A stretch of 64,000 nt of DNA from a virus (lineage: Duplodnaviria; Caudoviricetes). Numbering within the stretch: the first letter of the stretch is position 1; every line of letters begins with the position of its first letter. The translations under genes and the position numbers were made by a program. The stretch lies in the IMG/VR virus record IMGVR_UViG_3300010885_080481. One strand, given 5' to 3'. The notes below the pieces were generated by a model. The model searched no databases. It was not told where the DNA came from and was given only the letters and a program-made list of their open reading frames with translations. Shown here piece after piece: positions 13,595 to 21,987 of the stretch.

Positions 13595-14986
13595 ATGGCT
13601 TTAGTCGGTAACATATCAGGTAGCGTTCAATCAAATTCTGTTGTAGCTTTGTCGGGATCGCTGATAGTAGCGAATCGTCCCGATGCTCTTTTCCCCGGGA
13701 TGCCGGGTGCTGATACAACGTTCTTTGTCTCCGGAGCGATAGGCTCCGTCGACAAGAGCGTGTTTGGTGGCGACGTTGTTGTCAGCGGCTCTTTCACGAG
13801 CAAGAACGGTATGCTCGTCATAGGCGACGCCATGGAGATGACAGGTACGCTTACTGTCACAAGCGACGTGTCTGTCGGTGGAAGCCTCTTCGTCTCCGGT
13901 AACATGGTCGTCGGCGGAACAACCACAACAATTGATACCGTCAACCTTGAGGTCCGCGACGCAGTCGTCGGTCTAGGATTCTCCTCCGGAACAATCGCCG
14001 TGAGCGCAGGCGACCGCGGCTGGATTGGTGGACTCGTTGGAACTGACAACGCAGTCTTCAAGTGGTCAAATGCCGAGAGCGAGTTCGTCGTCGGTCGCAC
14101 AACTTCCTCCGCGACAGGTTCTCTCCCGGTCGTTCTCTCCTCGGTCTCCGGATTCCGAGCCGGCAATATCCAAGGTTCAATCGTCTCCGCTTCCCTTGGT
14201 TTCTCAGGCTCTCACACCACGCTGCTCGATGGCACCTCGGCATTCATCGCAGGCACCGGAATCACGATCACCTCTTCTTCCAACGGTCCGATCTACATCT
14301 CTGCGCCCGGAGGAGGAATAGGTCCAACCGGTGACACTGGTCCACAAGGTCCAACCGGTGACACTGGTCCACAAGGTCCGACTGGCGATACAGGACCACA
14401 AGGTCCGACTGGTGATACAGGACCGCTCGGTCCGACGGGTGACACTGGTCCACAAGGTCCGACTGGCGATACAGGACCACAAGGTCCCACGGGTGACACT
14501 GGTCCACAAGGTCCGACTGGCGATACAGGACCACAAGGTCCGACTGGCGATACAGGACCACAAGGTCCGACTGGTGATACAGGACCGCTCGGTCCGACTG
14601 GTGATACAGGACCACAAGGTCCGACTGGTGATACAGGACCGCTCGGTCCGACTGGTGATACAGGACCAGGAATCACGGTTTCAAACCCGCTTGACAACCG
14701 CATCTTAACCTCCGATGGAACTTCCTACGGAGCAAACGCGGAATCCAACCTCACCTTTGATGGGACTCTCATGACCCTCACGGGCTCAATGGAACCCGGC
14801 GATGACATCACCTACAACCTTGGTGCCCCTGGTAAACGCTGGGCCAACGTGTACACCGGCGACTTGCACCTCCGCAACGATCGCGGAGACTGGACCGTGG
14901 TCGAGGAGGAAGAGATGCTCACCGTTCGCAACAATAAGTCGGGTAAATGGTACCAGTTCGTGATGACTGAGATCAAGAAGTCTTGA
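13595..14986 (+). CDS. Collagen-like fibre protein
   Basis: 13 GPTGDTGP(Q/L) units; beta-rich N-terminus paralogous to 12577 and 17388; C-terminal [19 protein letters not shown] domain. Confidence 0.85.
14321..14668 (+). repeat. Coding tandem repeat, 27-bp unit x 13 (collagen [10 protein letters not shown])
   Basis: Unit like ggtccgactggcgatacaggaccacaa; first unit at 14321, 13th at 14645 (324 nt = 12 x 27). Confidence 0.95.
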
Positions 14987-14994
14987 TAATCTAT

Positions 14995-15038
14995 CGGCCC
15001 GTTGCGGTTCACCCCTCCCGACTACAGCGGGCCGTTTT
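14995..15038 (+). terminator. Probable intrinsic terminator
   Basis: cggcccgttg (14995-15004) pairs with cagcgggccg (15025-15034, one G-U), followed by tttt; the 20-nt loop is large. Confidence 0.5.
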
Positions 15039-15081
15039 ACGTGTTCCTAAACTATCAAAAAATTTGTAGTAGAATCGGTGT

Positions 15082-19712: not shown

Positions 19713-19730
19713 GAAATTCGGAGGAAAATC

Positions 19731-20981
19731 ATGTCGCATCTAATATCAACGCCGCCTTTCTTCGGAAGGGTAATCCAAGTCGACGCCATCAACGGCAACG
19801 ACTCGACCGGAAAGAGGGGACGGTCTCCCTTCAAGACCATCAACGCCGCGGTCTCGGCCTCGACGTCAGGAGACACGATCTGGGTGTCGCCCGGCACTTA
19901 TGAATTGACCTCTCCCATCACACTGACGAACGGAACTGCCCTCCGCGGCATGAGTCTACAGACGACCCTGATACAGATGACCAACGTGACAGGGGACACG
20001 ACTCTTCTGACGATGGGAGAAAACTGTCGCGTGGAGGACGTGACTCTGACGTTGACGTCCACCGGACACCACACCCTCGTCGGAGTCGACTTCCCAGGTA
20101 CATCTTCAGTCACGTCGAAACTCCGACCGACAGTCGTCACGGTCGACAACTCCTCTGCGTCGACGGGCGGGTCCTCGAACGTCTACGGCGTCCTGTGCTC
20201 AGGGACAGGTTCGCTGGGGACTGGTAACTTCTCGTTCAACTCCCTGAAGGGTATTACGGTCAATGTCCGCTCGGCGGGAGGCGGCAATAAGCGGGGGATC
20301 TACGTCACCGGAGCCGGGGCAATAACCACTCGTGACTTCAACCTGTACGTGACGGGATCTGCCGCAGGAGGCGGGTCGTTCGTCGGGGTCGAGACCGTCA
20401 ATCCCGCGGGACAGGTTCAGCTCAGATCCTCTACAGTATACGGCATGACGTCCGACATTAAGCAGAGCTCAGGGTCGATCGAGTTGGGACCAGGAACCGA
20501 CCTCGTCAACAAGACAGCGGGTGGAAAAAACTTCACTACTTATGTGTATCCCACCACAATCTTCTACGGCTGCATAGGATCGCTTAGTTCGTCATACGAT
20601 CCGGTGGTCGCTAACTACACGGCGTACCTCACACCGGGTGCCGGAACTGTACAGGCTGCAGCTACATCTCCGAGAGTAATCCACAGATTTCCTGACAAAG
20701 ATATCAACTTCTATTCGTCCCAACAGAAGGCGATCTGCTTCGGGTTGTTTGTCTCTGCTTCTATGGGTCCAGGCGCACCCGGGAACGTAACAAAAGTTGT
20801 GGTAATGAAAAATCGTGTTGACACACTTCTTACAGGAAGTTTGACCGGCAGCATGTTAGACGCAAGAAATTACAGCATATCCACCGACTTCAACCAATTC
20901 GACCTCCTGTCACTCAGGTTGGAATACACGGGATCGACGAACACAACCCATGACCTTTTCTGTCAGGTCGACATGTACTAA
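19731..20981 (+). CDS. Pectin-lyase-like beta-helix protein (tailspike/depolymerase-like)
   Basis: VDAINGND.TG....PFKTINAAV..S.SGDTIWVSPGTY is a typical parallel beta-helix N-cap, followed by G/T/S/V-rich repeating strands. Confidence 0.7.
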   Translation: MSHLISTPPFFGRVIQVDAINGNDSTGKRGRSPFKTINAAVSASTSGDTIWVSPGTYELTSPITLTNGTALRGMSLQTTLIQMTNVTGDTTLLTMGENCRVEDVTLTLTSTGHHTLVGVDFPGTSSVTSKLRPTVVTVDNSSASTGGSSNVYGVLCSGTGSLGTGNFSFNSLKGITVNVRSAGGGNKRGIYVTGAGAITTRDFNLYVTGSAAGGGSFVGVETVNPAGQVQLRSSTVYGMTSDIKQSSGSIELGPGTDLVNKTAGGKNFTTYVYPTTIFYGCIGSLSSSYDPVVANYTAYLTPGAGTVQAAATSPRVIHRFPDKDINFYSSQQKAICFGLFVSASMGPGAPGNVTKVVVMKNRVDTLLTGSLTGSMLDARNYSISTDFNQFDLLSLRLEYTGSTNTTHDLFCQVDMY

Positions 20982-21018
20982 TTCGTCACATTTTGTAACG
21001 TCGCTGAAAGGTTAGATT

Positions 21019-21987
21019 ATGCCTGTTAAATTTAGAAGAGTTGGAATAACCAATAACATTTATAATTCTGGATTTCCGGTTGGGAGACCAGCACTTGGTC
21101 CTGCTGGGCCGCAAGGAGAAACAGGACTAGCTGGTCCGACCGGACCTACCGGTCCAACAGGTCCGACCGGATCTGTTGGTCCAACTGGTACAGCTGGTTC
21201 CGCTGGTCCGCAAGGACCGACTGGGCCATCAGGATCGACTGGGTCGCAAGGTGATAAAGGCGAAACAGGAGCCGCTGGCGATCGAGGAGAGACAGGGCCG
21301 ACAGGACCTGCTGGTTCGACAGGTCCTCAGGGTGACAGAGGCGACAATGGTGCTACGGGAGCAACCGGTGATAGAGGAGAAGCAGGACCGACAGGCCCGT
21401 CTGGGTCTACAGGACCTCAAGGTGACAGAGGCGACAATGGTGCTACAGGCGATCAAGGTCCCACAGGCGCCGCAGGGCCGACTGGTCCGACAGGACCTCA
21501 AGGTAATCGTGGCGATAACGGCGCGACGGGTGCCACGGGTGCCACGGGCGCCACGGGTGATCGCGGCGAAGTAGGCGCTACAGGGGCGACTGGCCCTACG
21601 GGGACAGCCGTCGGAAGTTTCTTGTTTTACTTTGGTGCTACAAGCATAAGCATTGATGCAACGAGATACTTGTATCCGGGAAGCTCCACTTCTGCAGCAT
21701 CATCTACCATCGTCCAAATTCCTATGCCAATAAGAGGTAATATCACTAAAATGTACCTTGCTCAATTAGCTGGTTCAGGAACTCGATCTATTGATTATAA
21801 ACTTTACGTAAATGGATCTGCATCAGGCATGGGCGTATCAACAACCACTAGTGGCACCGACGCAAATACCACAGACTCTATCTCGATATCCTTAGGCGAT
21901 AAAATTGCCGTGGCATCAGTACCAGCTGCAGGGACGGGCACAACTCCATCTAATATAATGATAGTAGTAGTTCTTGAGCCTACGTGA
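21019..21987 (+). CDS. Collagen-like protein with a C-terminal beta-sandwich head (BclA-like layout)
   Basis: 57 uninterrupted Gly-X-Y triplets (21097-21609), 27 with Thr at Y; C-terminal ~125-aa beta domain. Confidence 0.85.

Follow-up and report, generated by a model that had tools for sequence, protein, structure and literature searches.

A mobile phage cassette that pairs a collagen-like fiber gene with a candidate fiber-glycosylating three-enzyme fusion

INTRODUCTION

SgtA of Clostridioides difficile, a protein of 358 amino acids (aa) with a GT-A domain (residues 1-260) followed by a TPR domain (residues 262-358), has been shown in vitro to place beta-O-linked GlcNAc on Thr residues in the GPT repeats of the collagen-like exosporium glycoprotein BclA3, using UDP-GlcNAc and Mn2+ (PMC7157674). 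Ser is accepted besides Thr (PMC7157674). Here we analyze a stretch of 64,000 nucleotides from a virus (Duplodnaviria; Caudoviricetes) deposited as IMG/VR record IMGVR_UViG_3300010885_080481, referred to below as the window. In this stretch, a gene for a three-enzyme fusion protein (15082-17343), the C-terminal part of which resembles SgtA, lies directly downstream of a gene for a collagen-like fiber, termed fiber 1 (13595-14986). A first-pass annotation of the region from 13595 to 21987, made by a model from the sequence without database searches, had proposed that the phage glycosylates, and may methylate, its own collagen-like fibers.

Glycosyltransferases encoded in the fiber regions of phages are usually read as modifiers of DNA or of the host surface. 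To our knowledge, very few systems have been described in which phage enzymes glycosylate the virion; mycobacteriophage-encoded glycosyltransferases are said to modify the virion proteins of their own phage, as Freeman et al. reportedly described in 2023. Glycosylation of Thr is a known stabilizer of collagen helices. In the chlorovirus PBCV-1, the capsid glycan is completed by the A064R protein, in which two glycosyltransferases and a methyltransferase are fused in this order (PMC9614988).

RESULTS

Domain architecture of the fusion protein

The gene at 15082-17343 (plus strand, GTG start) encodes 753 aa and joins three enzyme domains in a single chain, namely, a small GT2-type glycosyltransferase of the GT-A fold (domain 1; 15082-15696, aa 1-205), a class I S-adenosylmethionine-dependent methyltransferase of the O-methyltransferase-like Methyltransf_24 family (domain 2; 15718-16281, aa 213-400), and an SgtA-like GT2-TPR module (domain 3; 16291-17343, aa 404-753). 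Their predicted roles are glycan extension, sugar O-methylation, and initiating protein O-glycosylation, respectively. Pfam searches with the whole protein returned Methyltransf_24 (aa 236-353), GT2 (aa 411-501, E 6e-13), and TPR (aa 604-750). The Methyltransf_24 match had E values of 3e-19 and 4e-20, and Methyltransf_3 was also matched (E 1e-6). Residues 1-228, when scanned alone, matched GT2 (PF00535) with 26.1 bits against a cutoff of 23.3, so that the order GT2-methyltransferase-GT2-TPR read by the first-pass annotation is real. An AlphaFold model (80-row alignment, predicted local distance difference test [pLDDT] score of 90.9) shows three separate compact domains with a disordered linker at residues 206-212; in domain 3, a Rossmann-like GT2 domain extending to approximately aa 570 is followed by a ten-helix TPR-like domain (aa 572-753). 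The protein lacks a hydrophobic segment (maximum Kyte-Doolittle value of 1.0 over 19 residues) and is predicted to be soluble.

The family of domain 1 is rare (219 representatives in a set of 1.84 billion proteins) and nearly always occurs as one module of multidomain glycosyl- or methyltransferase proteins. Its profile matches GT2 enzymes that build glycans, namely, PglI, SpsA, and wall teichoic acid glycosyltransferases (6h1j, 5tze). Domain 2 has the fold of the cation-dependent O-methyltransferases, and its matches include catechol O-methyltransferases as well as MeT1 (6g80) and MycE (3ssm), which are both sugar O-methyltransferases. A methyl cap is predicted solely from this fold-level likeness to O-methyltransferases, some of which act on sugars. 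As context for a sugar acceptor, domain 2 is fused to two glycosyltransferase domains, and unrelated methyltransferase families are recurrently fused to GT2-TPR modules. All three enzyme domains are under purifying selection; the ratio of nonsynonymous to synonymous substitution rates (dN/dS), determined against the 91%-identical copy in the relative L002, was 0.14 for the whole protein and 0.12, 0.23, and 0.09 for domains 1, 2, and 3, respectively.

Homology of the C-terminal module to SgtA

Residues 404-753 match PHROG 13126 (E 5e-101), and hundreds of metagenomic proteins are 52 to 60% identical to this module. The 350-aa GT2-TPR unit occurs either alone or fused to Methyltransf_24, Methyltransf_11/25, GT32, or GT17 domains, and this shuffling of partners fits a toolkit for glycan building. 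In an alignment of 38 sequences (A1), the motifs DTGSTD, DLDE, and HE are invariant (D33-T-G-S-x-D38 and D83-x-D85-E86). In NCBIfam, the only named match to the enzyme was SunS, below the threshold. Among proteins of solved structure, the relatives detected by sequence are GmaR (E 3.5e-8), ThuS, and SunS; SunS and ThuS rank first in a fold search (E 1e-15 to 1e-17), and a search of Swiss-Prot models was headed by an uncharacterized cyanobacterial TPR protein and SunS.

The sequence of SgtA was located by means of the sgtA forward primer given in PMC7157674, which matched exactly in 1 of 401 Clostridia genomes. The corresponding open reading frame (ORF) encodes 358 aa, begins with MITISLCMI, and is directly followed by a G-X-T collagen gene. 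BLASTP aligned residues 3-346 of the module with residues 4-352 of SgtA at 23% identity (E 4e-17), and hhalign of the family profile against SgtA yielded a probability of 99.3% (E 9e-21) over 331 columns. The module family and SgtA have in common the motifs DTGSTD, DxD (LDADD in SgtA), HE, and FYY(A/S)RE. Given the end-to-end alignment and the profile match, the module can be classified, as far as sequence comparison goes, as a distant but full-length homolog of SgtA. The comparison with SgtA and flagellin glycosyltransferases that the first-pass annotation had suggested therefore bore fruit, and the nearest solved relatives, GmaR, SunS, and ThuS, act on proteins or peptides.

A quick maximum-likelihood tree placed 86 of the 87 viral modules, together with three contigs of metagenome-assembled genomes, in one well-supported clade. 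The window module grouped with those of L008 and L009, the Bacillota lineages were placed deeper, and SgtA was on a very long branch. Because the sampling of this tree was biased toward the query, we make no statement on the direction of transfer. The L009 record (G408:C1:19120-21844), a provirus according to IMG/VR, contains two tandem GT2-TPR genes, both of which are full-length profile matches.

Linkage to collagen-like genes in phages and bacteria

Profile scans with A1 covered IMG/VR and one genome per prokaryotic species. The family turned up in more than 438 contigs of the former and more than 576 genomes of the latter, and the genome matches, at 40 to 46% identity, are mostly from spore-forming Bacillota. 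Gene linkage was analyzed for the best 80 matches of each scan, that is, those most similar to the query. A collagen run was defined as at least eight G-X-Y triplets in a six-frame search of the flanks, Gly-rich runs being excluded, and the downstream flanks served as a matched control.

A collagen run was present within 10 kb upstream of the enzyme gene in 21 of 23 viral loci, compared with 3 of 30 downstream. In the genome loci, with a limit of 1 kb, the corresponding values were 30 of 67 and 1 of 72. The contrast between upstream and downstream flanks had a Fisher p value of about 1e-9 to 1e-10 in the viral and genome loci. Almost all viral collagen runs (180 of 183) are on the strand of the enzyme gene. 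The gap between the collagen and enzyme genes is often shorter than 200 bp, and the enzyme in such pairs is often a stand-alone protein of 347 to 370 aa, which is the size of SgtA. When genome loci were clustered at 70% identity, the difference persisted (15 of 29 upstream versus 2 of 35 downstream). Single-linkage clustering of the viral modules resulted in only 3 to 11 clusters, so that the cluster-level contrast in phages (5/7 versus 3/10) is a test of little power. The expectation of the first-pass annotation that the glycosyltransferase co-occurs with collagen-like genes is thus borne out by a strong, directional linkage in both phages and bacteria.

Relatives at 73 to 91% identity have a fiber with GPTGDTGPx repeats directly upstream of the enzyme. 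A cultured phage that contains a collagen-enzyme pair is Actinomycetia phage DSL-LC01 (OQ999401), in which two collagen genes precede a 44%-identical enzyme at a distance of 2 to 5 kb. In L007, the enzyme, which is 67% identical, is located directly upstream of gp13, gp15, and sheath genes, is preceded by an extra stand-alone Methyltransf_24 gene (826-1401, 191 aa), and has no collagen gene in the 1.4 kb available upstream.

Fiber 1 and its exchange as a cassette with the enzyme

Fiber 1 (13595-14986, plus strand) is a protein of 463 aa composed of an N-terminal module, a collagen stalk, and a C-terminal module. The stalk (14312-14671, aa 240-359) consists of 40 uninterrupted G-X-Y triplets, with 13 GPT-GDT pairs; GPQ or GPL comes after the first 12 of these and GPG after the last. 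Thr occupies 26 of the 40 Y positions. At the DNA level, the stalk is a tandem array of 12.9 copies of a 27-bp unit (14320-14668). The number of triplets differs widely among relatives, from 40 in the window to 43 in L001, 21 plus 48 in L004, and at least 119 in L009, and the length of the fiber stalk is therefore highly variable.

The enzyme gene lies within a block of fiber genes, as the first-pass annotation had noted. The preceding gene (12577-13545, plus strand) encodes a resident fiber-like protein of 322 aa without a collagen run (GC content at third codon positions [GC3], 0.34), which has a C-terminal module of 63 aa in common with fiber 1 (59% identity, E 5e-25). The gene after the enzyme (17388-19712, plus strand) encodes a fiber of 774 aa with YadA-head-like SHAEG repeats, also without a collagen run, and its N-terminal module of approximately 100 aa is shared with fiber 1 (43% identity, E 2e-16). 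It is followed by a gene for a pectate-lyase-like/DUF1565 beta-helix protein of 416 aa (19731-20981, plus strand), which is likely a tailspike or depolymerase-like component. Endolysin, neck, and sheath genes are found further downstream.

The four genes between 13595 and 20981, of which the beta-helix gene is the last, have GC3 values of 0.52 to 0.66, compared with 0.31 to 0.38 in the flanking genes. Analysis by blastn showed that the window is syntenic with close relatives up to position 13261 and again from 21018. GC3 and blastn together define a replaceable fiber cassette, or island, at 13261-21018 (plus strand), the upstream edge of which (approximately 13261-13324) falls in the 3' end of the 12577-13545 gene. 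In L185, L186, and L188, this slot contains approximately 3.6 kb of unrelated genes in place of the island. Among 80 relatives anchored on the neck protein (73 to 99% identity), none had a GT2-TPR gene upstream of the neck gene. In L186, the slot (4505-6907) contains genes for two paralogous proteins of 396 to 398 aa, with no assigned function, and for a 122-aa protein, an arrangement suggestive of an alternative cassette for this position.

The segment of the window from 13324 to 17752, which spans fiber 1 and the enzyme together with the end of the fiber gene before them and the start of the one after, matches L002, a 281-kb jumbo-phage contig, at 87.6% DNA identity, with unrelated flanks. 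The match ends at 17752, inside the YadA-repeat gene, and the junctions of the cassette fall within the conserved end modules of the fiber genes. Given this identity in a different neighborhood, fiber 1 and the enzyme travel together, and the pair has been transferred between phages as a unit. The neighbors of the cassette in L001 and L002 (16700-20000; also L005, 8480-11740) encode an eIF-1a-like protein (PF01176), a Cpn60/GroEL-like chaperonin, and a UvdE endonuclease.

The second collagen-like gene

The gene at 21019-21987 (plus strand) encodes a native collagen-like protein of 322 aa with 57 triplets, exactly 27 of which end in Thr. Pfam Collagen was matched by fiber 1 and by this protein, with E values of 2e-16 and 1e-27, and the abundance of Thr at Y positions described in the first-pass annotation was found in both. 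Its statement that the enzyme gene is flanked by two collagen genes needs qualification: fiber 1 ends 95 bp upstream, but the second gene lies beyond two other genes and begins 3.7 kb downstream. The GC3 of the second gene is only 0.33, and its high GC content therefore results from Gly, Pro, and Ala codons alone. Its closest relatives, L182-L189, retain the gene with 57 to 58 triplets and approximately 33 Thr residues at Y. Two near-whole relative records, 278 kb (84% complete) and 213 kb in length, yielded no GT2-TPR gene in a search whose positive controls were matched. The C-terminal 128 aa of the second protein, which were analyzed with regard to a trimerizing head of the C1q/TNF type as in BclA, have only two homologs; their model, built from a three-sequence alignment, has a pLDDT of 31.5, and an Atlas feature search with this domain returned only unnamed viral clusters.

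Genomic setting

The window is part of the genome of a large, uncultured, myovirus-like phage. None of 50,697 phage records matched the region when searched for near-identical DNA, and its metagenomic relatives are contigs of 190 to 281 kb. Downstream of the fiber block are genes for an M15 endolysin (22445-23233) and a neck protein (23692-24867), the L007 homolog of which is Phage_T4_gp13 by Pfam. They are followed by three tandem paralogous tail-sheath genes (26922-36343) with products of 1034, 1020, and 999 aa. The C-terminal parts of all three match PHROG 23, and such a triplication is unusual for a contractile tail. Genes for a UvsX-like recombinase, a DnaB-like helicase, and a ribonucleotide reductase are located beyond the sheath genes.

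Upstream of the fiber block, the gene at 1151-4612 encodes a protein of 1,153 aa with a Laminin_G_3 (concanavalin-like lectin) domain, and the large proteins encoded at 4628-10340 had no PHROG or Pfam match; these products are probably further baseplate or fiber components. A minus-strand cassette between structural genes (10506-12404) includes genes for a PTH2 peptidyl-tRNA hydrolase (11036-11398) and a NADAR domain protein (11423-11902), and its synteny at the DNA level is maintained in relatives such as L186. Long minus-strand ORFs (115 to 227 aa) at 13627-14703 and 16176-17235 are antisense to the collagen repeat and the GC-rich enzyme gene and are most likely by-products of composition rather than genes. 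Scans of 12000-23500 for promoters and terminators detected sites no more frequently than in shuffled sequence, and operon boundaries can therefore not be called in this region.

DISCUSSION

Considering the homology of the C-terminal module to SgtA, the linkage to collagen-like genes, and the joint transfer of fiber 1 and the enzyme, we consider it probable (roughly 0.7) that the enzyme glycosylates the collagen-like stalk of fiber 1. The broader proposal of the first-pass annotation, that the phage modifies both of its collagen-like proteins, is maintained for fiber 1 and weakened for the second. The second gene is native by its GC3 and is kept in relatives whose assembled records yielded no enzyme, which makes its product a doubtful substrate: a possible but unsupported second one, at best opportunistic.

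In the scheme that we infer, including its acceptor, its sugar or sugars, the order of its steps, the attachment point of the methyl group, and the benefit to the phage, a soluble enzyme made in the infected cell would decorate the stalk of fiber 1 before or during fiber assembly. The GT2-TPR module would transfer a sugar from a nucleotide sugar to the Thr hydroxyls at the Y positions of GPT and GDT triplets, with the TPR-like domain presumably holding the repetitive substrate; 26 Thr sites per chain would amount to about 78 per trimer. The small N-terminal GT2 domain may then add a second sugar, and the methyltransferase domain may O-methylate the glycan. A complex predicted for the GT2-TPR module and a 61-residue piece of the fiber 1 stalk had a score of 0.00, which is evidence neither way. 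Phages would exchange the fiber and the enzyme by recombination within the conserved end modules of the fibers. We offer only as a tentative suggestion that the exchanged fiber binds a receptor and that its glycan, a methyl-capped disaccharide at some 78 Thr residues per trimer, joins the protein in setting host recognition or protects the fiber.

Full-text literature searches retrieved no paper on glycosylated collagen-like phage fibers or on the pairing of such an enzyme with them in phages. Several observations weigh against glycosylation of the fiber. No glycan has been reported on any phage collagen-like fiber. Identity to SgtA is only 23%, and the phage enzyme could use another sugar and even another class of acceptor. 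The locus counts are not independent events, because they come from the best 80 matches and the viral modules are closely related. A collagen gene is absent nearby in about 40 to 55% of the genome loci, and distant homologs at 29 to 37% identity (L015, L016, and Pseudomonas phage PaBG at 37%) also lack one; the tie of the GT2-TPR family to collagens is therefore not exclusive. The native second collagen gene is kept in relatives whose assembled, incomplete records yielded no GT2-TPR gene. Finally, the Thr richness of the stalk had been considered a mark of glycosylation sites, and we reject this argument: the median Thr fraction at Y was 0.52 to 0.53 across the 94 loci analyzed, so Thr-rich Y positions are generic in prokaryotic collagen-like sequences and Thr content alone is no pointer to glycosylation.

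Rival readings assume a different acceptor. The enzyme might modify glycans of the host envelope, such as the lipopolysaccharide (LPS) O-antigen or core, teichoic acid, or the capsule, and thereby block superinfection or change a receptor, in which case a hypervariable region would have brought it next to fiber genes by coincidence. The C-terminal module is listed in PHROGs as a moron with the name "beta-1,4-glycosyltransferase," homologs are named lipooligosaccharide glucosyltransferases in database records, and papers on aquatic phages take such enzymes as modifiers of the cell surface or of DNA. The profile of domain 1 matches glycan-building GT2 enzymes, LPS-core GT2 enzymes are among the fold matches, and the PaBG homolog does not adjoin a collagen gene. 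However, the enzyme has neither a membrane segment nor a signal sequence, a protein substrate is favored by its TPR domain and by its homology, over the full length, to a protein O-glycosyltransferase, collagen genes are linked to it in a directional manner and often as tightly as in an operon, in bacteria and phages alike, and it has been co-transferred with its fiber. We consider envelope modification unlikely for these reasons.

An alternative that retains a protein substrate is that the enzyme glycosylates other virion proteins, such as the YadA-like fiber, the beta-helix protein, the capsid, or the tail, or any exposed Ser/Thr-rich segment. Capsid glycosylation by a phage enzyme has been discussed for mycobacteriophages, the island encodes two Ser/Thr-rich noncollagen fibers, and SgtA takes Ser as well as Thr. 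Nevertheless, the collagen-like gene is the conserved neighbor across distant loci, whereas the other island genes vary among close relatives, and the characterized relative of the enzyme works on collagen repeats, which renders this alternative improbable. Least plausible, and in our view very unlikely, is an enzyme that has phage DNA or a small molecule as its acceptor or that is an inactive passenger. DNA glucosylation is the classical role of phage glycosyltransferases, but purifying selection acts on all three domains, the catalytic motifs are invariant, and the linkage points to a protein-coding collagen gene. Moreover, we know of no DNA glucosyltransferase that is a GT2-TPR protein.

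If the enzyme does glycosylate the stalk of fiber 1, a single enzyme family in hundreds of uncultured phages would mark collagen-like fibers that bear glycans. This would have a bearing on the prediction of host range from fiber sequences, on phage immunogenicity, on the annotation of a very common phage gene, and on the stability of hydroxyproline-free collagen helices. The multidomain fusions would serve as compact makers of defined O-glycans on collagen-like scaffolds. Should the suggested role of the glycan in host recognition hold, the evolution of phage host range would have a further layer in fiber glycosylation, one that has been overlooked and that, with the module in more than 438 IMG/VR contigs, would be widespread. 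The contribution of this window in particular is the exchange of a fiber and its enzyme between phages as a unit.

Among the described systems, BclA of Bacillus anthracis, a collagen-like glycoprotein of the exosporium that bears O-linked oligosaccharides on its GPT-type repeats, is similar to fiber 1 in being a surface filament with a GPT-rich, hydroxyproline-free collagen stalk. The glycans of BclA consist of several sugars, including modified ones, which parallels the additional glycosyltransferase and methyltransferase domains of the phage enzyme. In contrast to that system, no genes for rhamnose or anthrose synthesis were present among the window ORFs scanned. The mycobacteriophage systems differ in that their targets are capsid and tail-tube proteins instead of collagen-like fibers. 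GmaR, the O-GlcNAc transferase of Listeria flagellin, and the peptide S-glycosyltransferases SunS and ThuS combine, like the phage module, a GT2 domain with a helical or TPR-like substrate-binding domain and act directly on proteins or peptides. However, their substrates are flagellin and Cys residues of glycocin peptides, and the relationship in sequence is distant.

A064R of PBCV-1 may be considered a functional analog of the window enzyme. It is likewise a soluble, virus-encoded protein of three domains, two glycosyltransferases and a sugar O-methyltransferase, and builds the glycan of the virus's own structural protein (PMC9614988). Its domain families are unrelated, however, it lacks a TPR domain, and it lengthens, rather than initiates, a glycan that is N-linked to the major capsid protein, in a virus of eukaryotes (PMC9614988).

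The closest parallel is the pair formed by SgtA and BclA3. In both cases, a soluble GT-A/GT2 domain followed by TPRs, together about 350 aa, is encoded by a gene that adjoins a G-X-T-rich collagen-like gene. The phage module differs in forming the C-terminal end of a three-enzyme chain, and the gene order is reversed, with sgtA preceding the collagen gene in C. difficile and the collagen gene preceding the enzyme in the window. Furthermore, the partner is a spore surface protein in C. difficile and presumably a virion fiber in the phage. Judged by homology and gene arrangement, the locus thus appears to be a phage variant of the SgtA-BclA3 kind, in which a three-enzyme fusion is carried on a mobile cassette together with its candidate substrate.

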